Source: a virus | Strand: one strand, 5' to 3' | IMG/VR virus record: IMGVR_UViG_3300045988_112440 | Length of the DNA stretch: 64,000 nucleotides | Shown here: positions 6,201 to 53,392 of the stretch, in pieces | Layout: the number at the start of each line of letters is the position of its first letter | Numbering within the stretch: position 1 is the first letter of the stretch | Position numbers and translations under genes: made by a program | The notes under the pieces: generated by a model | Told to the model about the DNA's origin: nothing | The model's database searches: none | Seen by the model: the letters and a program-made list of their open reading frames with translations, nothing else

Positions 6201-6461
6201 TATTTTCAAAGTGAGTTTTGGAGACTCTACCTTTTTAATGATTCGCTTCAATGCGGCATTAACATTGCCGATGGTTGCGCCTTCGTTTACACCAAAAGCA
6301 ATCTCCACAGGAGCCTTTTTAAAACTGTTTTGAACTCCTTTAAATTGATTTTTTAACTCCTCGGTAGTAGTATCAAGAACGACCTTGACCTTTATGGCCG
6401 TTACAGAGGAAGTATCAGCACTACTTGCGTTGTTTGTATTATCCGCCATACCGTTGGTCAC
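3294..6461 (-). CDS. tail tape measure protein (TP901-type core region near C-terminus)
   Basis: 1055 aa. Long coiled-coil N-terminal part, then ...ELGANISDLVSSTADWKRLGY...SSYLISAMQGFGL...MNQIANTEPVSMNDLGIIMQKSSAAMSAAGNTYQETLSLAAAVNGVLQDADTSGTYLKTL, typical of the TMP core; hydrophobic C-terminus. Confidence 0.85.
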   Translation of the reverse strand: MTNGMADNTNNASSADTSSVTAIKVKVVLDTTTEELKNQFKGVQNSFKKAPVEIAFGVNEGATIGNVNAALKRIIKKVESPKLTLKIDESNIDAAVKKAVDKAQSGAKNAKAEVKVNLNTNEAKQKLDAFYRRVQEKGSLYKDALKLESSGKNQPELEEVLRQLQAVRNEAGRLRTELVNILPTEEFSKISEIERATTNSISRLEARLQGLKNAANDGALKALKKSQSDQTNTYLNNLADANNKYKNFSGASDVKSSLADVQKQIDILNTLETGTQDYVNQLKVVADTWADATRQMSTFDEAQKKAENHVKSMTEQALKWKESIKDSDTASQELRDSIDGIIDASKKLDSDHSSDAYKKGVKDLDDAFISAKASMSVYTDGYKDLESTARRTLTEIRKKELELEQAGNHSFDSVLIGDSKTNSLDGSLESQLNSLKGMNTQSATYKQRVSDIVDEWLKVKIQIEQALKSEEDLQKEAEQKHGQVRSKQAAYNTIQNRLSSTEFTRKNSVALGQFNTGVLDDGKTGQQVLAELDAAMKQLDENKGPTEFKATLSQVDDLLVQVRKHIDDALGQSRQTKTANTDTDKIENLMRTLYQYKETLHGFEGSKFEAEYNELFDAIKNNSYSFEEAQMKVSKFQNACHQAGLETETLGQKLSRLFKEHFQTAIAMAGVAMVKQGLREVYDNVLELDTAVTELKKVSKMTGDEMNEYLDRTATNARELGANISDLVSSTADWKRLGYTDKDSEELARVSALMANVGDQIDNATTASSYLISAMQGFGLVADDAERLLDCMNQIANTEPVSMNDLGIIMQKSSAAMSAAGNTYQETLSLAAAVNGVLQDADTSGTYLKTLSMYLRASKTDAENAGIATDGMADSVSELRSELKQLAGVDIMKDNNTFKSTYQIMKELSEVWKNLSDTTQANITELISGKRGGQSTSALLNNFSVAEDAMKQALNSSGSAMRENQTYMDSLQAKLNQLDSAFQKFSTDLMKSDIPKFFVDLATVFVDGADNAVKFAGALPTLTAAISGVLSVMQMSGKLKNGAGKVNMPSYVCCV

Positions 6462-7147: not shown

Positions 7148-8137
7148 TCAAATCTCAAACCGATCCTTTGCGGACTGAATCTTGGTCGTATCCTTCTTGA
7201 TGTAATACTTGTTGGTCACATCCGTACCAGCATGGTTAAGCAGGGAAGATACGTCTTCCAGACTCATACCGGCATTCTTCAACAGAGTAGCACCACTGTG
7301 CCGGAAATCATGCGGATGCAGCGTTGGCTCATCAATCATCTCGCCAATCTTCTTACACCAGTCACCGGCAGTGCTTGAGGTAATCGGCATCCATGCACCA
7401 TTGATTTTCGTACCAACGAACACATAGCCACCATCCTCAATATCATGCTCAGTGCGATACTCTTTCAGTTCTTTCAAAAGCTCAGAAACTTCCTTACTAA
7501 ACATCAAATCTACGATTTTACCTTCTTTTTCCAGAACGTCATGCACCATGCGGTTCTCATAGTCGATAGACTTCCAAAGCGTATTCCGCACAGCATTGAC
7601 ACGAGCCATCGTTGATAGCGAGAACAGTGCATACAGACGCAGCGTCATCGCATTATCCTTCATGTGAACGGTGGTCGCAGATTCAACCAGAGCGTTCAGC
7701 TTCTCTCGCATCAACTTAACCTCATCAGGCGTAAGGTATGTCTGCTTCACAACAGCCACATCCTTGGTCGGTCGGTCAATGAACTCCATCGGATTTTCTT
7801 TGATGATTTTCTTCTTGCGAAGATACCGGTACAGCGCAGAAATCGTACTCATACGTCGCTTCATACGAGCAGAGTTATTTCCATGCTTCTTACAATAGAA
7901 CAGAAATTCCTCAATATCCTCTTCCTCAAGTTCCGTCACAGGAGCATTACCCTGATTGTCCAGAACATAAATCATCCACTGCTTGAAATCCGATTCATAA
8001 TTGTAAACAGTAGACGGGCTGAGATCACGGATGCCCATATCAGTCTCATATCTATCCCAGTATTTCAAAGACACTGGGTTTACGTTTTTGAACTTCTCAG
8101 CATCCCATAACTTCAGCGGTTTACTTCTTGTAGCCAT
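7148..8137 (-). CDS. tyrosine recombinase (XerC/D or phage-integrase type, catalytic residues present)
   Basis: 329 aa; SAM-like N-terminal domain; ARVNAV (Arg I), HPHDFRHSGAT (HxxR), LLNHAGTDVTNKYY (His..Tyr). Confidence 0.85.
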   Translation of the reverse strand: MATRSKPLKLWDAEKFKNVNPVSLKYWDRYETDMGIRDLSPSTVYNYESDFKQWMIYVLDNQGNAPVTELEEEDIEEFLFYCKKHGNNSARMKRRMSTISALYRYLRKKKIIKENPMEFIDRPTKDVAVVKQTYLTPDEVKLMREKLNALVESATTVHMKDNAMTLRLYALFSLSTMARVNAVRNTLWKSIDYENRMVHDVLEKEGKIVDLMFSKEVSELLKELKEYRTEHDIEDGGYVFVGTKINGAWMPITSSTAGDWCKKIGEMIDEPTLHPHDFRHSGATLLKNAGMSLEDVSSLLNHAGTDVTNKYYIKKDTTKIQSAKDRFEI

Positions 8138-11161: not shown

Positions 11162-11631
11162 CCCACAAGGTCATCCAGATCCTGCGTCTTGAACGTCATA
11201 ATTCGCACACGATGGTGTAAATCCATATTGTCCTCGATATTGGATGTGATTTTAAGCTGTTTGATTCCAAAAATTGTACTGCCGTGTAGTTCTTTTTCCA
11301 CAAGACCACTCAGATAGTCAACTCGTGTTGCACCACCATGGCCCTTCATTTTCATCAGCGCCTGGTTCACAATAACCCATACAGTAAGTGTGAAGTTTTC
11401 ATACCAGTCGTTGACGTTGCTTCGGTCAGTCATATTTACCTTAAAACAAATATAGCTGTGCGCTGCCTCAATCGTGTCAGGAATATGGAAGTATGGGAAG
11501 ATGTATGTATAAATCGCCTCGTCAGGCTCTTCAATGTCATCATTGCCCATCGCTTCAACAAGCCCATCAGTATTAACCAGCTTCAAGGCCAATTTGTTTT
11601 TATAATCAGTAATCAATTCACTCGTTGTCAC
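11152..11631 (-). CDS. hypothetical head-tail joining protein
   Basis: 159-aa ORF, translationally coupled on both sides. Confidence 0.6.
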   Translation of the reverse strand: MTTSELITDYKNKLALKLVNTDGLVEAMGNDDIEEPDEAIYTYIFPYFHIPDTIEAAHSYICFKVNMTDRSNVNDWYENFTLTVWVIVNQALMKMKGHGGATRVDYLSGLVEKELHGSTIFGIKQLKITSNIEDNMDLHHRVRIMTFKTQDLDDLVGCG

Positions 11632-12653
11632 AGCAAACTCACCACCTTACATTCAATGGATGCATTTGCTGTACCATCTGCATTCGTCAAAGAAATCCTA
11701 ACAGTTGCGCCGTCCATAATACTATTATTCAAAATACGAATTTTAAAAGTACCATCGTCGGCAGTCTGCGTTTCTACAAATTCCTTGAATTCCTCAAGGC
11801 AAACGAACTTCCACTTAGCAATTTCAGTAATTTCCTCGCCAGCAACACTTGTGAACATAGGAGAGAATTTTTTCCAAGAACCACCAATACGAACCTCTGG
11901 TTTTCCTACATACTTTATAGTAGCTGTCACACGAGAATCTATTTCTGATTCGTCGATTTTGTTTGGCTCAAAATAATCACAAATCATCTTCTCAGCATTA
12001 TCCGTCTTACTGTTATACTGATCCTGCCGGATGTTCAACACAAGGAACCCCTGTGTCCTACCATGCAGTTCGTAACGCTCTGTACTCTGGTCAACAGAAG
12101 TCGTAACATACGTTTTCGGCTCGCCATTGATAATTTCCAACATAAAGCGCTTATCAAGGTCAATCAGTGCGGTCTCGTCATCAAAAGGCATCTGTACTTT
12201 ATATTCACGTTGACTCAATGAAGTCATGATAATCTCCTTATTATTTGCGTAATAAGGCTTACTCAGTGTTGCCCAACGAGAGACTATCTCACCAGTAATC
12301 GGATTTTGCCATTGGATTTGACGGTTACACAGCTCCATTTTTCCACGAAGAAAAATTTCATCGTTTGGTTCAATCTCAGTTACCAGCTATTTACAATTGT
12401 AGCAGTCAACAATGTCGCCAAGATTCAAAGAATCACCAGGATAAGCCCAGATTTTCTTTTCCTTAGCAATACTATTACTGCGACTAACAACCAGCTTCTG
12501 AGGTAAACCATTCACAAGAGCATTATCCTCGTAATCAACGCTATCTTTAAAATGTGCAGCAAAATCTCGCTTTGCAAAAGCAATTTTGACATCCTTTTTG
12601 TTAGACATTTTTGCGGCACCACCAACAGCTCGTGCCCTTGTATAAAAGTCCAT
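11628..12653 (-). CDS. structural protein with one in-frame TAG (12387-12389); C-terminal Ig-like segment
   Basis: The 88-aa ORF (12387-12653) and the 236-aa ORF (11628-12338) share one frame. A single TAG plus 16 open codons separates them: ...DIVDCYNCK-TAG-LVTEIEPNDEIFLRGKMELCNRQ... No convincing RBS before the internal ATG. Confidence 0.6.
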
Positions 12654-12665
12654 CGGTACACCTCC

Positions 12666-15546: not shown

Positions 15547-17121
15547 TTACTTACCCAAATATTCCCGCCATGCATCACGCTTGTTAGCGTTAGTGGTGTT
15601 ATACTTGGTTTCATTCAAATTCAGCTTGATGCTCTCAGACTTATGTACCTCAGAGGTCTCAATCTTCTTTTCAGCAGGCGCCTTCTTGGCAGCTTCAACG
15701 CAACGCTCGGCAATCACATTCTTGATGCCGGTCTCGTCCAGATTCTCAATCAAACTTGCGTAATTGCCACCCTCGGAAACTTCAGCTTCAGTAATCATCT
15801 TGCTGGAGAGTGCGTACTGACGCAGATCCTCCTTCTTCTGTGCAAGCTCTGCAGCCGCTTTTTCTGCCTCTGCCTTCTCTGCCTGATCCTTATATGGAGC
15901 CAGAGAAGCAACCTCTTCCTTTGCACTCTGCAGCTCAGTGTTCAGACTTGCAATAGTGTTATTCAACTCCGCAATCTTGGTGTTAACATCAGAAATAGAA
16001 ACAGTCAGAGTAATACGCTGCGGCTCGCCAAGAGAAACCTCGTTGCCCTCAACGGTGTAAGAGAACATAATGTAATCCAAATCGTTCATACAACGACCGA
16101 ATTTCTTACACCAGATAGTGTGATCTTCGGGGAACACTTCGGCTAGATACATATCTGAATTAAACTTCACAACAGCTTCATTCAGCTTCTCGTACAGGTC
16201 ATGACCGGTCAAACTGGAAGTCTCAGTGGTAGACTCCGGCTCTGGCTCACCAGCAGGTTCAGTGCCGGTTTCAGGCTCAGTCGGGGGAGGGGTTTCACCG
16301 CCTTCCTCGGAAGTCTGAACATCAGGCTCTGCCGGAGTGGTGGGCTCGGTGGTAGACTCAGTAGCGATCTGCTCTGCCTGCTCAGTCTCGGTTGGATTCT
16401 CGACCTGCGCGGTCTGAGTCTCCTTATCCTTATTCAGTTCCAATTTTTTTGCCTCCTTTTCATTAGATTCTGTATTTGAAATCTCTTTTGTATCCTCGAT
16501 ATAGGCATTCGCTAATTCAAGGCCAAAATCGGTTTCAGCGACTTCAAGCAGCTTAGAGCACTTGTATGCCGGTTCAACATTTGCACCAAGCAAACAATGT
16601 GCAGTAAACACACCATCGTCAATAATTTTTGCCATGCGTCCACCCACGATACCCTTATGAGCTTTCAGCACATCAATTTCCCAACTGGTATTTAACGTGC
16701 CACTCTCAATACGGCGCAAAATCGTTGCACAAGCTTTTGGATATCGCTTCCAGATCTTACAAGAGGCAACAATAAAGTCGGTATCGTCAATTTTCTCGAT
16801 ACCGACTGACTGAAAACTACCGAATGCATCAGTGTCAAATTCAGCAGTTTTGTATTCATTGCCATCATCGTCTTTTCTGGTGACGACTTTCATATTGTGA
16901 CCGGAAAAATCCAGTTCACCCTTTGGAGCTACAACCAACTTACCAACAAGCGGGTTGCCAACCAGTGTACTCATCCAACTTTCAATGGTGTCACGGTTTA
17001 AAGCAACCTGATTCCCATTTACTGAGAAATCACAGATGACAAACTTGGCAAGATAGTGGTCTGGATGCTCCGTAATCTCAGAGCAACAGATGTTTCTACT
17101 ATAGAAATACTCCTTACTCAT
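15547..17121 (-). CDS. putative prohead protease/scaffold fusion
   Basis: 524 aa. Globular N-terminal about 200 aa, then an acidic Pro/Thr/Glu-rich linker (ETPPPTEPETGTEPAGEPEPE), then a C-terminal coiled coil typical of scaffolds. Confidence 0.5.
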   Translation of the reverse strand: MSKEYFYSRNICCSEITEHPDHYLAKFVICDFSVNGNQVALNRDTIESWMSTLVGNPLVGKLVVAPKGELDFSGHNMKVVTRKDDDGNEYKTAEFDTDAFGSFQSVGIEKIDDTDFIVASCKIWKRYPKACATILRRIESGTLNTSWEIDVLKAHKGIVGGRMAKIIDDGVFTAHCLLGANVEPAYKCSKLLEVAETDFGLELANAYIEDTKEISNTESNEKEAKKLELNKDKETQTAQVENPTETEQAEQIATESTTEPTTPAEPDVQTSEEGGETPPPTEPETGTEPAGEPEPESTTETSSLTGHDLYEKLNEAVVKFNSDMYLAEVFPEDHTIWCKKFGRCMNDLDYIMFSYTVEGNEVSLGEPQRITLTVSISDVNTKIAELNNTIASLNTELQSAKEEVASLAPYKDQAEKAEAEKAAAELAQKKEDLRQYALSSKMITEAEVSEGGNYASLIENLDETGIKNVIAERCVEAAKKAPAEKKIETSEVHKSESIKLNLNETKYNTTNANKRDAWREYLGK

Positions 17122-17132: not shown

Positions 17133-18785
17133 TCACTTACTATCTTCATTTCTCTGCTGGTCATAAATTTGTTTTTCAGTTTCCTCGCCCTTTGGACGGC
17201 CTGTCTTTTTATCACTGTCACCATCACCGCCGGAACTACCGGTCGATGTATAAGAGGTCTGGCGAGCCACAAACACATCGTCATAACCTTCCTCGGTTTC
17301 AGCCTGCCGCTTACGTAGTTCGTCCTCAGCATGAAGTCCCATATATTCGTAAGCAGTCTTGTAAGAACAGTTCAAAGTGGTGAACAGGAACTGAGCAATC
17401 GCCTTCTTCATCTCCATACCCATCATTTCAGTAGTAGAGACCTTCACATCAGGGCAGTACATCGGGTCTACACCTGCATCTTCAAGGCGAATACGATACC
17501 ATCGTTTTAATACATCTTCAATCTGTTCTGCAATCTTACCGATATTTTTCATCAGCTGGTCAAGAGACACCTTTGCAGTTGAAACAGTCTGCTGACCATC
17601 AGTATTCAAGAAACTAATACCCAAAGCAGCCATTTCTCGATTGCGATACTGTTTGACAGTCTCGATATTTGTCATCTCAACTTTTGGCTCAACATACTTG
17701 ATATCCTTTACATAAGGAGCGGTAGTCACAAGCACGGTATTTTGCTTCCATGCACGCAGCAGGTTATCGTGCGCCGTCACTTGTTCAGAGAAGCCCTTTT
17801 TATCTTTGTTTGGCCCCATCAACTCAGGGTCAAGCTGTTGCCAGATGATTTTCTTTGCCTTAGCCTTAGCATTTACACGGTCTGAAGTATCAAAGGTCTC
17901 AAGCATCAATGCCGGACGTAAGGCGCGAAACAGGGGAGAGACACCATATTTTTGTCCCATATTGCCAATACGAATCACGCCACAATGGTCAACATCCAAT
18001 TTTGCGTATGTATCACCATTCTTAAATGCCTGATACACCTCATCTGGATAGTTGTTCTGAATCTCAGTCTCCTGATTTTCAAAGAACAGTGCTTTATTCT
18101 TCTTATCCTTCAGCATAGATTTGCTCAAAGCAGATTTCAGTTTAGACATGTTAATAAGCACAACAGGCTGTCCATTTGATAAGTAATCACTTATCTCAGC
18201 AATACCAAGAGGGTAATAGTCTACAATGTAGTTCTCATCCTTCTGACGCAGATATGTAATATAAGTGCCCTCTGCGTAAGTCATCGGAATGGCGGCACGT
18301 AGCAGACTTCGCACATTGATTTGTGCGTTGAAGTCATCAATCACTTCACGGGCGTAATTTACCTGTTTTGTCTTATTACGCTGTTCAGGGAACTGAGCGA
18401 AACTGCATTTGAACTCAGTATTAACATTCGCCTCAATCGCATCATAAGTAATGCCAATCAGGTCATCCTTGTTGATGTAATTACGGATGATTCCATTGAC
18501 CGTCTGCACATTCGTCAGACTTGACTGTAGCCCTTGTGCAAGCTCATCAATTCGGTCAACGGTCAGTGTCTCAGAGGAGGCTGAAATTTTCAGATATGTA
18601 CTATACTGCTTATTTTCAGGGTCATAAGACGCAACTGCATTTCGGATGACGTTATTCATCCTCTCTTCTGAAAGTTCATTCAAAGAGGTAATAACTACAG
18701 TACCGTCGTCTGTCTGTGAAGCAGTCACGACATCAAAATCTCCTTTATATTCTTTAGGAATAACTTCCTTTTTCTTTCTTGCCAC
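17133..18785 (-). CDS. portal protein
   Basis: 550 aa, directly downstream of the terminase large subunit; size and acidic/basic C-terminal tail fit a portal. Confidence 0.7.
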   Translation of the reverse strand: MARKKKEVIPKEYKGDFDVVTASQTDDGTVVITSLNELSEERMNNVIRNAVASYDPENKQYSTYLKISASSETLTVDRIDELAQGLQSSLTNVQTVNGIIRNYINKDDLIGITYDAIEANVNTEFKCSFAQFPEQRNKTKQVNYAREVIDDFNAQINVRSLLRAAIPMTYAEGTYITYLRQKDENYIVDYYPLGIAEISDYLSNGQPVVLINMSKLKSALSKSMLKDKKNKALFFENQETEIQNNYPDEVYQAFKNGDTYAKLDVDHCGVIRIGNMGQKYGVSPLFRALRPALMLETFDTSDRVNAKAKAKKIIWQQLDPELMGPNKDKKGFSEQVTAHDNLLRAWKQNTVLVTTAPYVKDIKYVEPKVEMTNIETVKQYRNREMAALGISFLNTDGQQTVSTAKVSLDQLMKNIGKIAEQIEDVLKRWYRIRLEDAGVDPMYCPDVKVSTTEMMGMEMKKAIAQFLFTTLNCSYKTAYEYMGLHAEDELRKRQAETEEGYDDVFVARQTSYTSTGSSGGDGDSDKKTGRPKGEETEKQIYDQQRNEDSK

Positions 18786-18802: not shown

Positions 18803-20653
18803 TTAGAAGTCAATGTTAGAAATACAAATCGGCGGAGCAGTCATTGTCTCCACCGCAGACTGGCGCACTTTATCCTTACGACGTAATTCGTATAGACGAT
18901 GAGCAAGTAAAATTGCAACATAGAACCTATCATCGTGAATTTTGTTGGCAACATCGGGTGCCAAAGCATATGTTACGGTCGTATTTTCAGAGTTTGTCGT
19001 TTTCTGAATACTTGTGATCTCGTTCTTCATCAAGTCGATGTTAACCCACGCAGTCTGTTCCTCTAAGGAAAGTTCATGCGTCTTCAAAATTTCTTGACCA
19101 GTTGATTTATCCACACCGTCTACTACCTGAACATAATCTCCGCCGTTGTATTCAAGAGGGAAATGAATGACACCAAGATTCATCAGCTCAATAAATTCCT
19201 CAACCATTGCAGTGCGGAATTTACGAGGACTAATTAGACGTAGCTTATCAACAGCATCTGGGTAACGGGTATCATATCCTTCATATAATTCATGATTTGC
19301 GTCGATAAAACCACGATGTTCTGCACCTGTTTTATCAGTCCAATTGTTAAGTAAACCGTCCGCATATGTGGAAGTACCACCGCCACCAGCGCCTTGGTCA
19401 ATCATCAATCTATCAATGTACTCATAATCAGGATTTTGACCATTGTAATGTAGAATCAACTCATGTAACTGCTCAAGCTGACGATTAGAATCGAGCTTGA
19501 ATTTTTTCTCGTTCGCAAGATCAACCATGTTCACGCAATTTATAATGTCGCCACACATGCCGTTTTCTGGATCGTTATAAATGCGCATAACGCCAACAAT
19601 AGAGTTATCCATTGTGCGGGCAGGATCAAACGCAAGAATATACTGATAGTTCCTATCCCAATAAAGCTGTGGGATATACTTTCGCTCATTGCGACGAACC
19701 GTACCCCATTTGATAATCTGGTTTACGCCACCATCACGGCTTGGTCGATTATAATACTCACGCAATGCCTTCATTTTATTTGACTTTAGAGCTGCATCTA
19801 CCTTGTCTTGTGTCAATAGTGCTTTGTATGGCTTACCCTTCATATAAACTTTGATTGCAACGTCACAAATCATATCACAAACAAAATAATCTCGATCTCC
19901 TGCAATCATGCGCTTTGCAAATTGCTTGTAGTATTTATAAAAAAGCTTGTCCATCGTGTCCTGACTTGAAGCATAAACTAGCTGAGTAGGAACCTGACGA
20001 GGCTGCATTTCAGGATTATAGTCACTGTCAGTGTCAGTGACGAAATCCGTATTCTGTGTTGCAAAAGCTTCACAGACAACAATCAGTTCGTCGGAGCAGA
20101 ATGCCGCCTCATCAAAGAAAATAAGACTAGCTCGCTTGCCACGCACACCATCTGGGTTGGAGTTCAAAGTGTTAATAGAACTACCGTTATAAAACTCAAC
20201 AACATACCCGGCGGGATTATGACTAAAACCACTTTTGTTGGTTGCAGACTTTTTCGTTTCTTTCTCTGCAATATCTTGCAGACTACGGATAGACGCAGCC
20301 GTCTTACCAACACGAGTAACAATTTCCTCGATCTTATTAAATGTCTCTTTTGCCTGATCACCTACATTACTTACAATGTAAATAGACTGGTTCTCATATA
20401 ATATTGCCTTTAGGATAATGAAAACAGAACCTACAAAAGACTTGCCAAAGTTTCGACTACACGCCTAAAGAACATGACTTGCATTCCAGCTTTGTTCCAG
20501 CATATATGCCTGAGCGTCAAATAATTGGATACCCAATAAATCTCTAGCCGCAATAACAGGATTGCGCCGATAGAATGCAATCGTTGCCGCATCACACTCA
20601 TAAATCTTACGTTTTGCGGCTGTAATAATAGGCGCTCTTTGTTTCATCCTCAT
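18803..20653 (-). CDS. terL: terminase large subunit with one in-frame TAG (20465-20467)
   Basis: N-terminal ORF ends ...QSWNASHVL-TAG. The same frame continues ACSRNFGKSF (Walker A) for 100 open codons into the 454-aa ORF (LIFFDEAAF Walker B, nuclease half). No independent start for the downstream part. Confidence 0.8.
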
Positions 20654-22345: not shown

Positions 22346-22422
22346 TGGCACGCCCAGAGAGACTTCAACTCCCAAGAGGCAGATTTAGAGTCTGCTGTTT
22401 TAAGCAATTAAACTATAGGCGC
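22346..22422 (-). tRNA. suppressor tRNA, anticodon CUA (reads UAG)
   Basis: Hand-folded cloverleaf: acceptor GCGCCUA/UGGGCGU, D stem GUUU/AAAC, anticodon stem GCAGA/UCUGC, loop CU-CUA-AA, 5-nt variable loop, T stem GGGAG/CUCUC, G73, encoded CCA. Confidence 0.85.
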
Positions 22423-22451
22423 ATAAAACCTACCTTTTAGCCGGTGGTAGG
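22423..22451 (-). terminator. hairpin plus U-tract abutting the 5' end of the suppressor tRNA
   Basis: On the - strand: CCTACC-N11-GGTAGG, then TTTTAT, immediately before tRNA position 1. Confidence 0.4.
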
Positions 22452-22486
22452 GAACCGGTATAATATAGGCCCTCCGGGAGAAGGAC

Positions 22487-22578
22487 TGGCGCGGTCTCAG
22501 AGATTCGAACTCTGGCATCGGGTTTACCGACCTAACGGTGTTCAGGACCGTTCTCTTCAACCACTTGAGTAAGACCGC
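22487..22578 (-). tRNA. tRNA-Ser(UGA), type II with long variable arm; unusual C at position 33
   Basis: Acceptor GCGGUCU/AGACCGC, 3-bp D stem, anticodon stem ACGGU/ACCGU, loop CCUGAAC, variable arm with UCGG/CCGA stem, T arm CAGAG-UUCGAAU-CUCUG, G73, CCA encoded. Confidence 0.75.
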
Positions 22579-22773
22579 ACAATAAAACAAGCACTTATCA
22601 AACCATCCGAGCTAGTTGAATTGTTCTCGTGTCGATAAAACGCTTGTTTTAGACTTTTAAAGCTTCGCATTAACGTAGCGAAACACGATTGGCTTGGCAT
22701 TTTGCTTCTCAAAGCTACTCTGCGTCTGACTTTACAGCTTATACACGGTTGCAACCAATGACCGCTTTTGCCA

Positions 22774-22844
22774 TGCCACCTACAGGAATCGAACCCGTAT
22801 GTGAAAAATACAAATTTCCCATTCTACCATTAAATTAAGGCGGC
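22774..22844 (-). tRNA. tRNA-Thr(UGU)
   Basis: Acceptor GCCGCCU/AGGUGGC, D arm AUUU-AAUGGUA-GAAU, anticodon stem GGAAA/UUUUC, loop UU-UGU-AU, T arm ACGGG-UUCGAUU-CCUGU, A73, no encoded CCA. Confidence 0.85.
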
Positions 22845-22966
22845 ACGATAAGCTGGAGCAATCACCCCAGCCCATAGAAAAGGAGACAACAAATGATGTC
22901 CCAAGCAGACCTTGCGGTCGTACTTCTTTTTTAATTACCCACTTAAATTGGTAGGGTTTCACCGTT

Positions 22967-23971
22967 TTAATTCAAACGCACAATATGCGTTTTACTCTCG
23001 ATCAACTTTCCATCCCTGTCCTGATAGACAATAATGAAGCCTTCTCGCTGAGAAGTGGTCAACTTGCCCTCTGCATACTGCATCTTAGAAGACTCACAGC
23101 AACAACCCTGCTCATATACAACAGCTCCGTCACCAATATCGTAATGACCGCACTTGTGAGTGTGAGCGAGAACCACTGCATTGATGTCCTTAAATCCGTT
23201 ATCGCGGAAGTATCTGAATGCCTTCTCAGCAGTCTTCAGTAACCCAGATGAGTAAGTCAGCGGATGCACAAAGACGGTATCACCAATCTGACTAAAATAA
23301 GTATCGTTATAAACAATCTCGATACCAGTACCATTGAACACCTCAATCAAAGGGTCATAATGGACCTTTGTATGAAGTTCCTTGTTATAATGGTTGAAAC
23401 CATCAACAAAAATAAGCTCCAAAGATGTCTTCGGCATCAGTTCAAGTAGGTCGGTGTCCAGATTCTTAGCAAGGTAATTCTGAAAACGCAAGTCATGATT
23501 GCCATAATTGATAACAACCTTCTTGGGCTGAAGCATTTCAATCAGATCAATCATATACTGACGAGCAATCAGGATTTCCTCCATTGGACTTTTACGATAT
23601 ACTTTTAGGAAGCGAGAAATGGAGCTGCAGTCTACCAAATCTCCGTTTACCTGAAGGATATCAATCTTTCCAGCATACTCACTAAAAGTCTCGATGGGCT
23701 TCTGGAATGGAATATGTAGGTCGGAAATAGACAGAATGCCGGTTCCTACATCTCTATTAGATAAGGACTCCTGATACTGCATACCCGCACGGAATGCTTT
23801 AAAACGCTTGCGATATGTGCACTCACCAAAATTCTTACCCAACTCATCATTGAGCACCTTGGATGCGCCATCCCAAGTCAACTCTCTAGCCAGAACAGCA
23901 TTCCCGATTCTTACAAAGAAGTCATCGCTCGTTTCTTCTGGCCGTTTATTATAGCAACCCATTGGCATCAA
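22967..23971 (-). CDS. calcineurin-like metallophosphoesterase
   Basis: 334 aa; ISDLHIPF, VNGDLVD, NYGNHD and VLAHTHKCGH motifs after an N-terminal domain of about 70 aa. Confidence 0.8.
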   Translation of the reverse strand: MMPMGCYNKRPEETSDDFFVRIGNAVLARELTWDGASKVLNDELGKNFGECTYRKRFKAFRAGMQYQESLSNRDVGTGILSISDLHIPFQKPIETFSEYAGKIDILQVNGDLVDCSSISRFLKVYRKSPMEEILIARQYMIDLIEMLQPKKVVINYGNHDLRFQNYLAKNLDTDLLELMPKTSLELIFVDGFNHYNKELHTKVHYDPLIEVFNGTGIEIVYNDTYFSQIGDTVFVHPLTYSSGLLKTAEKAFRYFRDNGFKDINAVVLAHTHKCGHYDIGDGAVVYEQGCCCESSKMQYAEGKLTTSQREGFIIVYQDRDGKLIESKTHIVRLN

Positions 23972-24156
23972 GCTGGGTCGCCCAGCAGCTCATCAGAAGT
24001 GGAAATATTGATGGTGACACCCTCAATACCATCCCACTTTGCCAGAGCTTCCGTCAGATTGAAGACGTTCTCGCCATCCTTGGTGATCTCGGTGATAGTG
24101 CCCTCTGCAGTATCAATAATAGCGTTCTTAAAAACAACACTCTTCTTAGCAACCAT
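23968..24156 (-). CDS. small hypothetical protein (possibly YonK-like)
   Basis: 62 aa, AAGGGAG RBS. The family guess comes from memory of small SPbeta-type proteins only. Confidence 0.55.
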   Translation of the reverse strand: MVAKKSVVFKNAIIDTAEGTITEITKDGENVFNLTEALAKWDGIEGVTINISTSDELLGDPA

Positions 24157-24197: not shown

Positions 24198-24917
24198 TTA
24201 ACGATTAAACTGAATCATATCAGCCCACGTACTGATCCAGCCACGATGGTTGGTATGCAACTCACAAATTGCAGTTCGGTCATGTCCCCTAAAGTGTTCA
24301 AGATATGGGAGGAAACCACTATTCTGTGGATTCTTATACAAATCGCACTGACCAGTATGTCCGATTACGACAAGCTTGCACGAATCCTTCAGCCTAGTAA
24401 TGACCTTTAAAAGATCACTAAGATAGAAATTCTGCGTTTCATCGAGCAAAATTACCTTTTTATCAAAGGTGATGCCGCGCATATATGTGTGAGTTGCACA
24501 CTGAATATACGCACCATATTTCTGACTTTCAGGATTGTCATCAACAATCATCGCAACATTTGGATTAACGCCAATAGTCTCAAGTGCCTGATAAAGTGGT
24601 TCCATATACGGAGCACTCTTCTGTTCCTGCGTGCCGGGAAGATAGCCTTGCTTCTCTTCCTGTGTAGGAGAAACAATATATGCGATACCATTATATAGTC
24701 CATACTGAACTAACAAATTCGCCACACCGACAGCAATCGTAGTTTTACCAGTACCAGCACGGGCGTTACAGAACACAACATCAATATCGGGATTCCAGAT
24801 TGCGTCCCTAAAGATTTTCTGTTCCGGATCGAGCGTCATTCCATAAAAAGTAGGATATTCATCCAGATTCTGCGGGACATCCTTCTTCTTACGCATTTCA
24901 GTCTTATCAGAAGCCAT
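24198..24917 (-). CDS. phoH: PhoH-like ATPase
   Basis: 239 aa; Walker A ARAGTGKTT; LLDETQN Walker B; typical PhoH length and order. Confidence 0.85.
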   Translation of the reverse strand: MASDKTEMRKKKDVPQNLDEYPTFYGMTLDPEQKIFRDAIWNPDIDVVFCNARAGTGKTTIAVGVANLLVQYGLYNGIAYIVSPTQEEKQGYLPGTQEQKSAPYMEPLYQALETIGVNPNVAMIVDDNPESQKYGAYIQCATHTYMRGITFDKKVILLDETQNFYLSDLLKVITRLKDSCKLVVIGHTGQCDLYKNPQNSGFLPYLEHFRGHDRTAICELHTNHRGWISTWADMIQFNR

Positions 24918-24933: not shown

Positions 24934-25557
24934 TTAATTGAATTCATCCACATCATCGCAAATCTTATCTACAATGCCAAAGTTGACCTGCTCATTAGCG
25001 TCCAGATACCAATCCTTCGCTTTATTCTTGGTCATAGTCTTCTTATCAATGGTAGAGTGAGCCATAATATACTCACGCATCTTTGCAACCTGCTTCTCGT
25101 AGTAGTCCATAGCCATCTTAGACTGCTCAAAAGTACCCTGCGTACCGCCAGAGCCACTATGAATCAATGCAGTAGAATGAGGCAGAGCAAAGCGCTTCTG
25201 ACCAGACAGCAGCATCACAAGAACAGCGCTCATTGCAATACCTGCGTTGATCGTCCAAACAGGAGTCTTACTCAGCGCAACAACATCAATAAAGCTAAAC
25301 ATCGCATCCAACTCGCCACCATAGCTGTAAATAAACAGCTTAATAGGTTTGCGCTGCTCAATAGGAGTATTCTTGTCGATACGGTTGTATTGAAGAATCT
25401 TTCGCTCAATTTCAATCAGAGACTGGTCAATCTCAAAATCAATAAAAAAGATGCGATCCTTCTCGTCAACGTAGAAGTTCATCATCTCAGGAGAGGGGAG
25501 ACCACCACCATTCATCAGGTTTGTAATCTCCTCGGGCAGCTGAATTTCAAAATCCAA
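24934..25557 (-). CDS. clpP: ClpP-family serine protease
   Basis: 207 aa; GIAMSAV (Ser), ALIHSGSGG (His) and a downstream Asp in ClpP-like spacing. Confidence 0.75.
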   Translation of the reverse strand: MDFEIQLPEEITNLMNGGGLPSPEMMNFYVDEKDRIFFIDFEIDQSLIEIERKILQYNRIDKNTPIEQRKPIKLFIYSYGGELDAMFSFIDVVALSKTPVWTINAGIAMSAVLVMLLSGQKRFALPHSTALIHSGSGGTQGTFEQSKMAMDYYEKQVAKMREYIMAHSTIDKKTMTKNKAKDWYLDANEQVNFGIVDKICDDVDEFN

Positions 25558-25582: not shown

Positions 25583-25762
25583 TTAGTCTCGAATGCCGCG
25601 TTTGGCACGCTCAACAATTTCACGAGCTTCAATATTAAACGGAATCAGCTCCAGATAACGAACAGATTCCTCAATAAATCGCTTGTGTCGAGTTTTTGCA
25701 ATGAAAACCTTCGGATAAACCTTACGAATTTCCTTTGCTTCTGCTTTGGTAATCTCAATCAT
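25583..25762 (-). CDS. hypothetical small basic protein (59 aa, below track cutoff)
   Basis: ATG 25760-25762 with an AAGGGTG RBS; MIEITKAEAKEIRKVYPK... Confidence 0.45.
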   Translation of the reverse strand: MIEITKAEAKEIRKVYPKVFIAKTRHKRFIEESVRYLELIPFNIEAREIVERAKRGIRD

Positions 25763-25780: not shown

Positions 25781-25834
25781 CAAAATAAAATAGGTAGGAA
25801 GAAAACAAGCGTTCTCGCTCGCTCTCTCCCTACC
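25781..25834 (-). terminator. rho-independent terminator after 25915-26670
   Basis: On the - strand: GGTAGGGA...TTCCTACC stem with an inner AGCG-AGAA-CGCT, then TATTTTATTTTG. Confidence 0.55.
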
Positions 25835-25914: not shown

Positions 25915-26670
25915 TCATAAATCAAACATTTTTCTATTTTGTGCGGTTTTCTCAATATTTACGTTTTTAGCGCACTTACGACAGTATTTTTGTCTGCGTC
26001 CGGTGCGAGCAACCATCTTTCCGCAACAATCACACTTGATGTACTCTTTCCCACAATACTGACTCCACAGAATACCAGCATTCTCAAAATCGTCCACAAA
26101 AATCTCATGAGGAGAATCCGGCTCTGCAATCAAAATATGGATGTTCAAGTTGTCAATCTTTTTCAAGCTGGCAAACCCAATAAAGCCAAGATTATGTAAC
26201 TCACAGATCATCTCGTTCTGTTTTTTCTCATTTGCAGATACGTTTGCCATCCTGAAAATATCAGCCGTATCTTCCGTAATCCAGTAGTTGCATTTTTCAT
26301 TAACGGCAATATGGTATTTTGCCAGACACAGCATTGTGAACATCAGGCGTTGCATCTGCTTGCTTTCAAGTGCTTGAATCTTCTCTACCTCAGCCTTTGT
26401 AATGCACACACCATCAAGTTCCACCATAGGACGACCCTTTGCAGAAGCAATTGCTTTATCAATCAGCTCTCTATCTAGAACCTTGTTATACCCTTCAAAA
26501 TGACGCAGCATATACTCGTTAAGCTTTTCTCTTACGTCATCCTTTGAGTATCCCTTATAGAAATAATACTTCGCAATATAATGCAAAACATGCCCCGCTT
26601 TCTTCCAAGGCACATCCTTCTCTAGCCATTCTTCAGCGTAAAGAACTTCATTCAATACAATCATCCGCAT
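25915..26670 (-). CDS. hypothetical protein with C-terminal zinc ribbon (possible RNAP accessory/regulator)
   Basis: 251 aa; CDCCGK..CRKC; overlaps the RNAP-like gene end by 23 nt. Confidence 0.6.
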   Translation of the reverse strand: MRMIVLNEVLYAEEWLEKDVPWKKAGHVLHYIAKYYFYKGYSKDDVREKLNEYMLRHFEGYNKVLDRELIDKAIASAKGRPMVELDGVCITKAEVEKIQALESKQMQRLMFTMLCLAKYHIAVNEKCNYWITEDTADIFRMANVSANEKKQNEMICELHNLGFIGFASLKKIDNLNIHILIAEPDSPHEIFVDDFENAGILWSQYCGKEYIKCDCCGKMVARTGRRQKYCRKCAKNVNIEKTAQNRKMFDL

Positions 26671-29431
26671 CCTCCTTGCTATTCATGTCAACCAACACAT
26701 CCTTGAAACGCTTGCCGTCATATTCAATATCGCCATTCTCATCCTGCACAAGAGAATGCACCATACCATTATGGCGTTCCAATAAACGTTTAATCAAAGT
26801 ATCATGGAACAACTCCCAGACGATTGCAATACTGGACGCATTCTTTTTACAAAGATCAAGCAGAATGTCGCAAAGCACATCGTCATTAGAACACTTATCG
26901 TGAAGATTGCGGAACATACTTTCCTGATACAGCGCAATTCGCTCCTTGCGGTCTGCGCCGGTTTCCTTATTATTATTTCCGTTACCAGAATGGATTGCGT
27001 TGCCACGAGCAAATCTCAAATAGTCCTTAAAGATAGAGCGGATGCCATAGTATTGAGAATTAGTGTATTCAACGCCATACTTGAGCGAATCATAATCAAA
27101 CTTGCGCTTTATCTTGAGTTCTTCCTCAAAATCCTCCAATTCATCCTCAACGGTCCAGCATAGGCGGTTCATAGTACAAGAGTTGATTCCGACCGGCATC
27201 CGATAAATGTAATACTGGATAACCATTTCATCCACGTCGTCCTTGACGGTCTTTTGCATAATCTCATCCAGACCGGCAAACCCATCCCACTTGATGCGCT
27301 TGCGAGCTGCGGCCACATACTGCTTATAATCACGCATCTGAGCAGGGTAGATGTAGCTCATAAAGTACGGCTTACGCCATGCGCAAATACTACTCCAAAA
27401 CTTCTTATCCTCGATAGTATCAGGATTATCATCGTCTTTAGCAGCACAAGCTTTGTTGTCATACCAATACTGCGGCATAGGTACGCAAGAAATTCCCTTT
27501 ATGCGATCAATTGTATCTTGTTGATATTTCTGGCCAGAAATAATACGATATGTAAGCTCTTTATATTCTCTACTTTCTGGCTCAAATTTACTCTGTACAT
27601 CAAACATTGTGGTGATACGATTGGTTACCTTGCCGATATCGTCACCAAATCCATTGATGTTAGATTCAATGAAATCCTGCTCGGTTGGAACTTTCTTTTC
27701 ACCTTTTTTCTGAGCGCAAAGAATTACAGTCTCGTTTCTCCATTTATCAAGGAGAATTCTATTGTCTGTACTGAAAATAAGATCGCCATCCCAATCCATT
27801 CCATCTAGTGCAGCACACGTATTATCAAACGCACTTACGATAGCCACCGTTTTAATGTAGCGATACCAATTCTTGCATTCATCACTCGAATTTAAATCTA
27901 AACACCGAATGTTTGCCATTTGACTCATCGGTGCTCTAAAGCAGGCTACCCGCTTAACATCGCGGTCGTTCCAGAATCGGCTGTAAACCTCTCCAGCTTT
28001 TAACAGTCCAGTAACTTCCATTCCAAAGATAGATTGACAAAGCGCATAAGGGTCTCCACTTGCCACTTGGAAATTCCCTCGTACTTTCACAACACCCGTT
28101 TTTGCTTGCGAAATTCGCTTTTTAATAAAGTACCGAATCCGATTCTGCACATAAGGGTCGTTAATCATTTCCGGCTCAATCATAAGAGCCTTAATATAGT
28201 CGTTTTCCAGACTGTTTATGTAATTCGGGTCATCACGCATTCCACTACCACGCAAATACAGCAACGCATCACGCCAGTCACCGCCCATGACGCCCTTGAT
28301 CTCATCCAAAGTTGGCTTCACGAGCTCATGTATCTCTTCGTTCGTAAGCTGATAGCTTTGAATAAACTGATAATTCAAGTTACGCTCTTCATCAAGCTCC
28401 AACTCACAAGTCTTTGTTACAGAGAAATGGTAGTGATTTTCCTGGCAATTCTCAAAGTAGTCCTCGCAACTATGATAACTATCCCACAACTTGAGCATCG
28501 ACCCTGTGAGAATCACCTGTACGCGATTAACATCCTTGTAGTTCCCCCAAATATCGCGTACCATGTTCTGTTTCGCTACCTTCTTAGCAAACTCGCGAAA
28601 AGGGAAAGGGAATAACATGCCTTTACAAAATGCGTTGCGTACACAAAAGCCAGATGCGGTGGATGGTAGCTTCAAATCCTCACTCCATTGCTGTGCGAGA
28701 TCGTAACTGATGAGTCCAAAACCGTCGCTTGCACAAAGCTCACAGTCCTGCTCAGGATTCTCCACCATTGTAGGTTCACCAGACACTCCGTCATCCAGAA
28801 CGATTACATGGTCTTTAAAATGCGTGAAACAATCATCTACAACAAGCACACCGTCAGGGTCAGTAACAGGAATAGATGCGGAGCAGGCGAGAGCCCTGTA
28901 GGCTTCTAGCTTTGCCGGAATGAACTCCATTCCTTTGTTACGGCCATTATCGATTCGCTTGCGGATCTCATCAATAAGACAGTCACTTACAAACACAATC
29001 GTGCTGTTCTTAACACCACCGGTAGTCCCAACCAAGCGGCGATATGTGATTCCATTGATTTTAAACCCCTTTGGAGAGCAAGCCCGGCGGTAATCATTCT
29101 TCTTATCTACTACCAGGCACATATAATCCGGCTTGAATTGAACTGCGTCCAGCTCAGTATACAGCCTCCGAATCTCCCGTCGGTTCTCTAAACAAGATGG
29201 CTCATTCCGCAACATTTTAATTCTACGCTTGATGCTCCGTGCCTTAGCCTCTGCGTCCGTAACACCATTCAACTCATCAATCCATCGTAGAACAGTGCTA
29301 TCAGCAAGCGAGATGATTTCGTGATTTCGTCTGGCTTCATCCAATGGTAGAGTTAAATCCCATTTTGTTTCAACTAGACGCTTCGTATGGATCTTAAAAA
29401 CAAACTTTTGGCAAGTTTGCTGCTTTGCCAT
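26648..29431 (-). CDS. single-subunit double-psi-beta-barrel RNA polymerase-like protein (YonO / cellular-RdRP-like)
   Basis: 927 aa; ...VACFRAPMSQMANIRCL..., then about 45-50 residues on, AALDGMDWDGDLIFS (DxDGD metal-binding loop). Confidence 0.6.
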   Translation of the reverse strand: MAKQQTCQKFVFKIHTKRLVETKWDLTLPLDEARRNHEIISLADSTVLRWIDELNGVTDAEAKARSIKRRIKMLRNEPSCLENRREIRRLYTELDAVQFKPDYMCLVVDKKNDYRRACSPKGFKINGITYRRLVGTTGGVKNSTIVFVSDCLIDEIRKRIDNGRNKGMEFIPAKLEAYRALACSASIPVTDPDGVLVVDDCFTHFKDHVIVLDDGVSGEPTMVENPEQDCELCASDGFGLISYDLAQQWSEDLKLPSTASGFCVRNAFCKGMLFPFPFREFAKKVAKQNMVRDIWGNYKDVNRVQVILTGSMLKLWDSYHSCEDYFENCQENHYHFSVTKTCELELDEERNLNYQFIQSYQLTNEEIHELVKPTLDEIKGVMGGDWRDALLYLRGSGMRDDPNYINSLENDYIKALMIEPEMINDPYVQNRIRYFIKKRISQAKTGVVKVRGNFQVASGDPYALCQSIFGMEVTGLLKAGEVYSRFWNDRDVKRVACFRAPMSQMANIRCLDLNSSDECKNWYRYIKTVAIVSAFDNTCAALDGMDWDGDLIFSTDNRILLDKWRNETVILCAQKKGEKKVPTEQDFIESNINGFGDDIGKVTNRITTMFDVQSKFEPESREYKELTYRIISGQKYQQDTIDRIKGISCVPMPQYWYDNKACAAKDDDNPDTIEDKKFWSSICAWRKPYFMSYIYPAQMRDYKQYVAAARKRIKWDGFAGLDEIMQKTVKDDVDEMVIQYYIYRMPVGINSCTMNRLCWTVEDELEDFEEELKIKRKFDYDSLKYGVEYTNSQYYGIRSIFKDYLRFARGNAIHSGNGNNNKETGADRKERIALYQESMFRNLHDKCSNDDVLCDILLDLCKKNASSIAIVWELFHDTLIKRLLERHNGMVHSLVQDENGDIEYDGKRFKDVLVDMNSKEDADDCIE

Positions 29432-29687: not shown

Positions 29688-30083
29688 TCACCCCTCAACT
29701 TCCATTGTAACCATACTGATTTTACGATATGGGCACAAGACTTGCATACACCGGTCAATATCATCAAATACGACATTTTTTCTTCGACCACGTTCTGTCT
29801 TTTCGTGTTCGAAATATTGACAAATATCGTATAGACGAATTTCAATCGCTTCTACCACACCATTGAACTTGTGGTGGTTTATGATTATGGAATAAACATA
29901 ATCAGAACAAGTAATCCTGTCTATTTCTAACGAATCAAAATCTTTACAGATATCTTTGATAATATATTCCAAAGCTATCACACCGGCTCTATCTGGTGCT
30001 ACAATATCGCAGTCGTGTTCAATTGCGTGTTTACAAGCATCATATGAACGTCCATACCCACGAGGTAAAAGAACTTTCTCCAT
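29688..30083 (-). CDS. hypothetical protein
   Basis: 131-aa ORF coupled to its neighbours. Confidence 0.6.
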   Translation of the reverse strand: MEKVLLPRGYGRSYDACKHAIEHDCDIVAPDRAGVIALEYIIKDICKDFDSLEIDRITCSDYVYSIIINHHKFNGVVEAIEIRLYDICQYFEHEKTERGRRKNVVFDDIDRCMQVLCPYRKISMVTMEVEG

Positions 30084-30412
30084 TACTTGGCCTCCTCATC
30101 CATAATAGCTCCGCAGTAAGGGCAAAACATTACTTTTCTATCATTTCTCCAATAGTTCTCATCAACTTCAATGCATTCACATCCACATTCAGAACAAGCA
30201 CTATTACCATAATCGTCAATCCAATGAGCGTGAACTACAGGACGAAACTCACGATGCTGAACCTCATCTTGAATCATATTTTTGACTACGCCGAGCGTAA
30301 CAAAATTCGTAAGAAATCTCTCTGATTTACCATTCGCACGAGGCGGAACTGCTTTCAACGCAGCGTCAATACTGTCTAAAATTTTTGTTGCATTTACAAA
30401 CTTATCCATCAC
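30083..30412 (-). CDS. zinc-ribbon protein, paralogue of 30687-31004
   Basis: Shares EFRxVVHAHWI...C..C...FCPxCGAxMDEExK with its paralogue. Confidence 0.65.
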   Translation of the reverse strand: MMDKFVNATKILDSIDAALKAVPPRANGKSERFLTNFVTLGVVKNMIQDEVQHREFRPVVHAHWIDDYGNSACSECGCECIEVDENYWRNDRKVMFCPYCGAIMDEEAK

Positions 30413-30690
30413 TTAACCTCCTCAACAACCCGGCGGATTGTCTCATCAATCTGTTCAAGCTGCGTCAGCAAAACATCCACGGTATCAGCATCACTTTCGG
30501 AAATATTTAAATCCTTAATCTTATGTAAAGCCCATTCAAGGTTCGGGTAATAGCCGACCGTAACCTCCTTTACGCCGGTGCCCATCTCACCAGTCTTTGG
30601 ATTCTTGCCAGCAGGTCGCTGCTCAACGATTACGAGATTCCTCTCATCACAGTTCTTTATAATGTACTTTCCAATCTGAATACGCATCAC
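30409..30690 (-). CDS. hypothetical protein
   Basis: 93-aa ORF, 4-nt overlaps on both sides. Confidence 0.6.
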   Translation of the reverse strand: MMRIQIGKYIIKNCDERNLVIVEQRPAGKNPKTGEMGTGVKEVTVGYYPNLEWALHKIKDLNISESDADTVDVLLTQLEQIDETIRRVVEEVK

Positions 30691-31004
30691 TTAACCTCCT
30701 CGTCCATGACAGCTCCACAGTCAGGACAAAACTTTGATTCATCAATGTTTTTGCTAGAATGACAAGCCGAGCATTCGACAAAGAAACTTTCTCCAAAATC
30801 TTCAAAATGCTCAATCCAATGAGCATGGACTACTTGACGGAACTCGCCGCCTGCGGCCATCTCTTCTTGCATGTATTGAATTGCCCCTTCTAAAGTCATC
30901 TTACACACGGTTTTCTGAAAAGCAGAAACAGAACTATTATCGATCAATGGCTTTGTATCTTCCAATGTCTGAATCAAGTGTGTCGCGTTAATAAACTTCT
31001 CCAT
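30687..31004 (-). CDS. zinc-ribbon protein, paralogue of 30083-30412
   Basis: 105 aa; same C-terminal motif set. Confidence 0.65.
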   Translation of the reverse strand: MEKFINATHLIQTLEDTKPLIDNSSVSAFQKTVCKMTLEGAIQYMQEEMAAGGEFRQVVHAHWIEHFEDFGESFFVECSACHSSKNIDESKFCPDCGAVMDEEVK

Positions 31005-32793: not shown

Positions 32794-32831
32794 TCTACAC
32801 TCATTATACCATGAGATTGCCAAAAGTTCAA

Positions 32832-53154: not shown

Positions 53155-53379
53155 ATGATGAAATATGGAAACATAACGTGTAAACGATGTGGGGCTACGT
53201 GGTATGGGCCAAAGTGTGGAAAGCTTTATTGTGATAATTGCAGAAGGATTGTGGATAGAGAAAAAGATATTAGATGTAAAAATAAAAAGAAACACAAACC
53301 GACATTTGTTGAAATTACAAGAATGGCAGATGCAGAGGGACTGTCCTATGGCAAGTATTGTTTAAAATATGGAATCTAA
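53155..53379 (+). CDS. zinc-ribbon small basic protein
   Basis: Start ATG 53155; CKRC..CDNC; 74 aa. Confidence 0.55.
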   Translation: MMKYGNITCKRCGATWYGPKCGKLYCDNCRRIVDREKDIRCKNKKKHKPTFVEITRMADAEGLSYGKYCLKYGI

Positions 53380-53392
53380 AGGAGACGCAAAT

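Follow-up and report, generated by a model that had tools for sequence, protein, structure and literature searches.

The viral DNA analyzed here, IMG/VR virus record IMGVR_UViG_3300045988_112440, is a stretch of 64,000 nucleotides (nt), which we refer to as the window. On its minus strand, at 26648..29431, lies the gene for a YonO-like single-chain two-barrel RNA polymerase (RNAP), an ATG-initiated open reading frame (ORF) of 927 amino acids (aa) preceded by the ribosome-binding site GGAGGTG. The protein is a member of the YonO/QDE-1 two-barrel family, an enzyme class that has been known since 2003 to 2010. The YonO-like clade is the bacterial and phage branch of this family, which also holds the eukaryotic RNA interference (RNAi) polymerases QDE-1 and RDR. 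The gene overlaps a downstream gene for a putative 249-aa partner protein and stands upstream of genes ordered like those of the late module of prophage SPbeta.

Polymerase gene, catalytic residues, and fold

A preliminary description of this DNA had reported a 927-aa ORF at these coordinates with two peptides typical of two-barrel RNAPs, an RxP element and, about 45 to 50 residues later, a DxDGD element. The ORF list reproduced the frame and both peptides exactly: VACFRAPMSQMANIRCL begins at residue 495 and AALDGMDWDGDLIFS at residue 540. The codons of R499-A-P501 (27929-27937, minus strand) and D546-W-D-G-D550 (27782-27796, minus strand) were checked by translation, and D.DGD occurs a single time in the protein. 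The measured distance from R499 to D546 is 47 residues; that from R962 to D1007 in QDE-1 is 45 residues (PMC2919709). Neither element varied among the 54 close or the 60 distant homologues compared. Because of this invariance, and because they align with the catalytic residues of YonO, QDE-1, and RDR2, RAP and DWDGD are not chance motifs.

Eight residues are invariant in all two-barrel RNAPs, namely, one Asp and two basic residues in barrel 1 and R-x-P and D-x-D-x-D in barrel 2; in QDE-1 they are D709, R738, K743, R962, P964, D1007, D1009, and D1011 (Ruprich-Robert and Thuriaux, PMC2919709). When a profile built from 60 diverse homologues, YonO (22% identity) among them, was aligned to QDE-1 (chain index plus 380 gives the published numbering), D236, R265, K270, R499, P501, D546, D548, and D550 of the window polymerase fell on these eight, one for one. 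The first three, whose segment D236 to K270 is encoded at 28622-28726 (minus strand; translation checked), also fell on the SDG...R...KG motif of RDR2. The barrel 1 spacing (D-29-R-5-K) is the same as that of QDE-1, and the barrel 2 spacing is nearly identical. Across the 60 diverse homologues, with identities down to 22%, seven of the eight residues were invariant and R265 was at least 90% conserved.

The only Pfam-A match of the polymerase was PF05183, "RdRP" (RNA-dependent RNA polymerase), which scored 55.1 bits against a gathering cutoff of 23.8 (E value, 7.5e-15) and spanned aa 117 to 613 and profile positions 60 to 510 of 582. BLASTP aligned aa 121 to 611 with SPbeta YonO at 26% identity (E value, 2e-26), pairing CKGMLFPF with VKGLLVPF, CFRAP with ILRSP, and MDWDGD with FDNDGD. 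When searched against PDB sequences, the profile of 60 diverse homologues retrieved maize RDR2 (E value, 1.7e-4), QDE-1 (9e-4), and Arabidopsis RDR2 (1.4e-3), and a profile of the 54 close homologues retrieved nothing. A phmmer search of PDB sequences with the single polymerase sequence gave no true match; its PDZ-domain hits (E > 0.02) were rejected as chance matches arising from the local string "FDNT-AALDG--GD". Three unannotated PHROGs families matched, one of them over aa 1 to 548 and another over aa 570 to 922. Scans of NCBIfam and PADLOC gave no model for the polymerase or the 249-aa partner, which leaves a defense-system reading unsupported.

Homologues were found by tblastn in 42 of 50,697 phage records. 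The nearest were those of Clostridium phage c-st (39% identity) and six Enterocloster bolteae phages (38 to 41%), one of which, PMBT24, has its homologue labeled "RNA-dependent RNA polymerase"; the PMBT24 genome paper is silent on the gene. Bacillus phage BUCT082 followed at 31%, and about 26 SPbeta-like Bacillus phages matched aa 121 to 611 at 25 to 26% identity (E values, 1e-20 to 5e-24), several of them under the label "yonO: DNA-directed RNA polymerase." The term "YonO/RdRP-like" used in the preliminary description is thus upheld by Pfam, BLASTP, and structure, and it can be sharpened from similarity to membership in the YonO-like clade.

An AlphaFold2 model of the polymerase, built on an alignment of the 54 homologues, was confident, with a mean predicted local distance difference test (pLDDT) score of 86.7 and a predicted template modeling (TM) score of 0.80. 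In a Foldseek search of the PDB, the 21 best matches were all RDR2 (Arabidopsis and maize) or QDE-1 (Neurospora and Thielavia), with a probability of 1.00, E values of 4e-16 to 6e-12, and TM scores of 0.39 to 0.49 across about 800 to 940 columns. The next match was the P23-45-type phage gp64 RNAP (8F72; E value, 4.6e-5), and bacterial beta' chains gave weak, nonsignificant matches (E > 0.2). Of the structures proposed earlier for comparison, QDE-1 was thus among the best matches, together with RDR2, and crAss-like gp66 was absent among the PDB matches. In the BFVD library, models of phage proteins named "RNA-dependent RNA polymerase" matched with E values of 9e-42 and 9e-30, and P23-45 protein A7XX94 matched at 5.6e-5.

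The model has strand clusters at residues 220 to 308 and 493 to 554, as a two-barrel RNAP requires; the barrel topology was read from the DSSP string and the Foldseek matches. The first (beta-like) double-psi barrel (28508..28774, minus strand) is a run of strands that includes D236, R265, and K270. The second (beta'-like) barrel (27770..27955, minus strand), also delineated by the alignments to YonO and QDE-1, contains RAP, at the end of beta strand 493-497, and the DWDGD metal-binding loop. This loop lies inside a run of strands and leads into strand 550-554 (pLDDT of about 77, with flanks above 90), as expected for a second barrel, in agreement with the earlier assignment of DxDGD to a catalytic double-psi barrel.

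The family is large. A HMMER scan of 1.84 billion representatives yielded 1,691 clusters (50% identity) at an E value of ≤1e-3 and 464 at ≤1e-30, and a word-indexed search found more than 4,400 related proteins, many tagged PF05183. The cluster nearest to the polymerase (91% identity) has 1,174 member sequences. Named relatives came from Faecalibacterium prausnitzii (87%, partial), Oscillospiraceae, Anaerocolumna xylanovorans DSM 12503, Tyzzerella, Ruminococcus, and Acutalibacteraceae. The host of the phage is probably a gut clostridial bacterium.

Some family members are interrupted at the catalytic loop. The polymerase gene of phage c-st (locus L003, 7662-7958) is split between the DMD and GD codons by about 340 nt; the last nucleotide is T in the 5' exon and G in the insert, and the insert matched Rfam Intron_gpI at 25.4 bits (E value, 1.8e-4), which is below threshold. 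Among the 150 best family representatives, at least 14 sequences terminate at "...NGxD" or no more than 5 residues beyond it, and two start at "FDGD" or bear it after a short unrelated leader (the representatives concerned include P0180, P0189, P0191, P0151, and P0262). From the c-st split and these truncated ends, we infer that the catalytic loop is a hot spot for intervening sequences. Three further loci (L016, L017, and L020) have 0.3 to 1.3 kb of extra DNA within the polymerase gene. Phage c-st also carries a RAGATH-18 RNA (L003, 11965-12025, plus strand; Rfam RF03064, 64.3 bits) just upstream of a histone-like gene and downstream of the YonO-like locus.

The overlapping partner gene

The partner gene (25915..26664, minus strand) encodes 249 aa from its second ATG and overlaps the end of the polymerase gene by 17 nt. 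This second ATG (26664) is the likely start: it lies 6 nt past an AAGGAGG Shine-Dalgarno sequence within the last codons of the polymerase gene, and the partner proteins of relatives begin at the same MIVLNE. The protein consists of a helical N-terminal part, a probable winged-helix domain, and a C-terminal Zn ribbon (CxxCG...KYCxxCA). It corresponds to phrog_30716, labeled function unknown, and has no family annotation. Its model had a pLDDT score of 83.6, and its Foldseek matches were all winged-helix DNA binders (Fur, MarR, Rep, and ORC; E ≥ 0.04); since these matches are weak, DNA binding is treated here as a hypothetical role.

The Zn ribbon connects the partner with YonO. SPbeta YonO has such a ribbon at about aa 797 to 820, and a C-terminal CxxC...CxxC is lacking in the window polymerase chain. 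In this phage, the homologous ribbon instead occurs in trans, on the separate downstream protein (BLASTP against the C-terminal ribbon of YonO, E value of 0.001; hhalign probability of 77%, E value of 2e-5), and the depositors of phage c-st labeled its partner homologue "YonO homolog (C-ter only)." The fused ribbon is the sole YonO trait that the polymerase lacks, and it is a trait of SPbeta YonO itself, not a published family-defining feature.

Partner and polymerase genes are closely linked. A partner homologue (25% to 71% identity) lies directly downstream of the polymerase in all seven fetched loci. The two genes are likewise neighbors in each of the 10 phage records whose alignment runs along the partner, Bacillus subtilis phage BUCT082 included; an eleventh record, D-1873, matched the Zn ribbon alone. 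In one metagenomic protein of 1,173 aa (P0227), the partner is fused to the C terminus of the polymerase. We read the partner as a probable polymerase subunit or specificity factor. A direct role in promoter recognition can be put forward more tentatively, as a possibility that we rate somewhat below even. Slightly more speculative is the generalization that most YonO-like enzymes are two-polypeptide RNAPs, in which a catalytic chain would be coupled to a winged-helix/Zn-ribbon partner acting as a sigma-like specificity module, and that SPbeta YonO is a reduced form that has kept a fused Zn ribbon. If true, this would bear on a question left open in 2017, i.e., whether YonO recognizes promoters alone or via a factor.

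Zn-ribbon-like ends also occur in two paralogous small proteins encoded upstream of the polymerase gene, of 109 aa (30083-30412, minus strand) and 105 aa (30687-31004, minus strand). They have in common a "...FR(P/Q)VVHAHWI..." motif and a C-terminal CxxC...CPxCGAxMDEE.

Gene order, hairpin gap, and probable TAG recoding

By GC skew and ORF orientation, the genes run leftward between about 32.5 kb and 1.5 kb (the leftward block) and rightward from about 35 kb onward (the rightward block). After the polymerase gene, the minus-strand order is the overlapping 249/251-aa gene, a 152-nt gap, a 59-aa ORF, ClpP, PhoH, and yonK, followed by a YonJ-like gene, three tRNAs, a gene at the YonG position, terminase, a 550-aa ORF, a YonD-like gene, and, farther on, a tyrosine recombinase and the tape measure. 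The preliminary description had put the polymerase gene early in a leftward operon, upstream of tRNAs and morphogenesis genes, and the tRNAs, terminase, and tape measure do all lie downstream.

The small conserved ORF (25583..25762, minus strand; 59 aa, MIEITK...) is the first gene past the gap. Between the gap and yonK lie a ClpP-like protease gene (24934-25557, minus strand) and a PhoH-like ATPase gene (24198-24917, minus strand). The yonK homologue (23968..24156, minus strand; 62 aa) matched Pfam PF09642 YonK with 38.1 bits against a cutoff of 25 (E value, 1.8e-9), and the yonJ-like metallophosphoesterase (22967..23971, minus strand) matched Pfam Metallophos and, by BLASTP, SPbeta YonJ (E value, 7e-6). 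The tRNAs (22346..22845, minus strand), identified with ARAGORN and Rfam, are Thr-UGU, Ser-UGA, and a suppressor-type tRNA with a CUA anticodon; at the gathering threshold, Rfam found tRNAs and no other RNA family in the window. Farther downstream on the same strand are the terminase large subunit (18803-20653), the 550-aa ORF, assigned to the portal by position (17133-18785), the yonD-like gene (15547-17121), identified by BLASTP to SPbeta YonD, and the tape measure (3294-6461).

When the SPbeta late proteins were compared with all window ORFs by BLASTP, YonO, YonJ, YonD, YomU, and YomI were matched, in conserved order. Judged by sequence, the parallel with SPbeta extends over the whole predicted late module. 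The gene order is kept in relatives whose polymerases are 89%, 59%, 49%, and 48% identical, as well as in locus L006, which was found via its partner homologue (68% identical). Loci L004 and L006 to L009 have in common the order polymerase (RdRP), overlapping gene of about 250 aa, gap, small ORF, YonK/YonJ, (HU-like), YonG, terminase, portal, and YonD. Pfam matches to YonK, YonJ_N, YonG_N, and YonD_N lie downstream of the polymerase in relatives at 48 to 89% identity, with YonJ_N found on the yonJ-like orthologues in L004, L006, and L007. At the small-ORF position, ORFs of 53 to 83 aa were called in L004 and L006 to L008, and a homologous N terminus reads on in L009. ClpP and PhoH occupy the place before yonK also in the close relatives L004 and L006; they are not there in L007 to L009 or SPbeta.

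The window has two tyrosine-recombinase/integrase-like genes (7148-8137, minus strand, and 53369-54238, plus strand). The first is inside the late structural block, between the tail genes and the tape measure, which is the same odd place as that of SPbeta yomM.

The 152-nt gap after the partner gene contains a terminator-like 19-bp hairpin followed by a T-run (25793..25834, minus strand). Its predicted folding energy was -32.3 kcal/mol (z = -6.25), a value matched by 0 of 200 shuffles, and hairpins and A/T-rich runs were seen by eye at the equivalent position in L006 to L009. A hairpin with a T-run at this place fits an early/late boundary.

The 69 window ORFs end in TAA (36 ORFs) or TGA (33 ORFs) and never in TAG. 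The CUA-anticodon tRNA was located at 22346-22422 (minus strand) by ARAGORN. The terminase gene is one 617-codon frame with a single in-frame TAG (20465-20467), which stands just ahead of Walker A, and the stretch from this TAG to Walker B lacks a start codon. Another late ORF (11628-12665, minus strand) likewise has one in-frame TAG. Given the CUA tRNA, the absence of TAG stops, and the in-frame TAG in both genes, the phage likely reads TAG as a sense codon in late genes. The polymerase and partner genes have no TAG.

Template, timing, and relation to known polymerases

It is highly probable, in our view, that the 927-aa protein is a single-chain, two-barrel RNAP of the YonO-like clade that is catalytically competent and DNA dependent, probably dedicated to an SPbeta-like late module. 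YonO is a processive, strictly DNA-dependent RNAP whose Asp triad is essential for catalysis; in SPbeta it is the enzyme that transcribes the late operon, starting upstream of yonK (PMC5467207). By analogy with the gene order of SPbeta, transcription of late genes from DNA is the most likely function of the window polymerase as well. In the mechanism that we propose, the two double-psi beta-barrels (aa ~220 to 308 and ~493 to 554) would form the active site; D546, D548, and D550, together with D236, would hold catalytic Mg2+ ions, and R265, K270, and R499, like their counterparts in QDE-1 and cellular RNAPs, would touch the incoming nucleoside triphosphate and the 3' end of the RNA. Host RNAP would express the polymerase gene within a leftward early/middle unit, along with the translationally coupled partner. 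The best sigma-70-like match in the window, TTGAAC-17-TATAAT with TG (32803..32831, minus strand; a consensus match only, 10/12), lies upstream of the first leftward-block gene and is a possible promoter for this step. The polymerase would then transcribe the late module (small ORF, ClpP, PhoH, yonK, yonJ, tRNAs, yonG, terminase, portal, yonD ... tape measure), beginning in or past the hairpin gap at 25.76 to 25.91 kb, where the late promoter probably lies. The suppressor tRNA is within the module predicted to be transcribed in this way. In the more speculative two-polypeptide reading, the enzyme would top a cascade leading from polymerase to suppressor tRNA to translation of TAG-containing late genes, e.g., terminase.

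Several points weigh against this reading. The identity to YonO is just 26% and is limited to the catalytic half, with the C-terminal third aligning weakly. QDE-1 accepts both RNA and DNA templates (PMC9508822), and sequence gives no template preference. The post-partner gaps of eight loci yielded no shared late-promoter motif beyond the hairpin and A/T run, and the promoter of YonO itself is undefined (PMC5467207); the available data did not suffice to place the SPbeta start site (position 2225998 in B. subtilis 168) on the SPBc2 record. ClpP and PhoH intervene between the gap and yonK, and the spacing between PhoH and yonK is only 41 nt, so that the start site cannot be "just upstream of yonK" as in SPbeta. 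A sigma-70-like match at 24186-24158, upstream of yonK, was discarded, since it ends 2 nt before the yonK ATG and cannot work as its promoter. Lastly, gp64 of phage P23-45, a phage two-barrel RNAP, transcribes early and not late genes (PMC10770324), which shows that timing varies within the family.

The example of gp64, which serves early and middle genes (PMC10770324) and was itself a Foldseek match, raises the alternative of a DNA-dependent RNAP for early/middle genes or for no more than a small regulon (the tRNA cluster or a noncoding RNA, for instance). The failure of the motif search to find a late promoter in the post-partner gap is in keeping with this idea, as is the 30-kb rightward block of small genes (33 to 64 kb), which has no assigned polymerase. 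However, YonO is far closer to the window polymerase (by sequence, E value of 2e-26) than is gp64 (by structure only, E value of 4.6e-5). Moreover, SPbeta and every relative examined agree in where the polymerase gene stands with respect to yonK, yonJ, yonG, terminase, and yonD, and this gene is co-stranded with the late module and directly upstream of it. We therefore regard an early or small-regulon role as unlikely.

A still less probable reading is that of an RNA-dependent RNA polymerase making double-stranded RNA (dsRNA) or antisense RNA from phage or host transcripts, for regulation or counterdefense. The name invites it: the sole family-library match with a stated function is called RdRP, the closest solved structures are RNAi RdRPs, and close homologues are already labeled "RNA-dependent RNA polymerase" in GenBank and nr. 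That name, however, was carried over from the eukaryotic members, and we know of no dsRNA role in a double-stranded-DNA tailed phage. The polymerase gene also occupies the equivalent place in an SPbeta-like late module, and YonO, the only characterized prokaryotic member, has a strong preference for DNA templates and is indispensable for the transcription of SPbeta late genes (PMC5467207). A degenerate or repurposed homologue without polymerase activity, serving, e.g., to bind nucleic acid or as a structural protein, is conceivable for any very divergent family member and has nothing specific in its favor. It can be set aside as highly improbable, since all eight catalytic residues are kept, invariant or nearly so across hundreds of family clusters, and the catalytic-loop codons of relatives are targets of intron-like insertions that restore DxDGD on splicing, as is typical of essential conserved sites.

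The assignment as a late-gene DNA-dependent RNAP has consequences beyond this window. No simpler relatives of cellular RNAP are known than the YonO-like enzymes, which are abundant in phages of about 100 kb that infect gut Clostridia; databases and phage papers leave their genes unannotated or name them "RNA-dependent RNA polymerase." To our knowledge, YonO is the only YonO-like enzyme to have been studied biochemically. In practice, such genes can be annotated correctly, as encoding a DNA-dependent RNAP for late genes; the conserved partner, found also in B. subtilis phage BUCT082, becomes a candidate for the promoter-recognition factor that is still missing; and the polymerase gene can mark a distant SPbeta-like lineage within the gut virome.

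Among known systems, YonO of SPbeta, characterized biochemically by Forrest et al. in 2017 (PMC5467207), is the nearest. It has the same eight catalytic residues as the window polymerase, at a size of 839 versus 927 aa, and both enzymes lack trigger-loop-like homology to cellular RNAP. Each is encoded by a large siphovirus-type phage of Bacillota, directly upstream of a co-oriented yonK-yonJ-yonG-terminase-portal-yonD module. They differ in the Zn ribbon, which is fused to the C terminus of YonO and, in the window phage, is carried by the separate overlapping protein with about 200 extra residues. In SPbeta, the HU-like yonN and a 1.7-kb gap separate yonO from yonK; in the window phage, the partner, the small ORF, ClpP, and PhoH lie between the polymerase gene and yonK. 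The hosts also differ (Bacillus for SPbeta and probably a gut clostridial lineage for the window phage).

QDE-1 (2J7N and 7Y7P-T) and RDR2 (7EU1, 7W82, and 7ROZ) are the best structural matches and have the Pfam family and the eight active-site residues in common with the window polymerase. Their sequence identity to it is 12 to 14%, which, with the TM scores of 0.39 to 0.49, indicates that the domains outside the barrels differ. These eukaryotic RdRPs act in RNA silencing on RNA (and single-stranded DNA) templates, without a phage context. The non-virion RNAP gp64 of Thermus phage P23-45 (8F72; PMC10770324) is, like the window polymerase, a single-chain, two-barrel phage RNAP, and the relationship is detectable by structure. 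It is much more distant, with no sequence-level similarity, and has a length of about 600 aa; it transcribes early and middle genes and recognizes GC-rich promoters (PMC10770324). The crAss-like phi14:2 gp66 (6VR4) and the multisubunit beta/beta' enzymes have the same two-barrel core and DxDGD loop (PMC2919709, PMC10770324); gp66 is a virion-packaged giant and beta/beta' are multisubunit assemblies, unlike the window polymerase.

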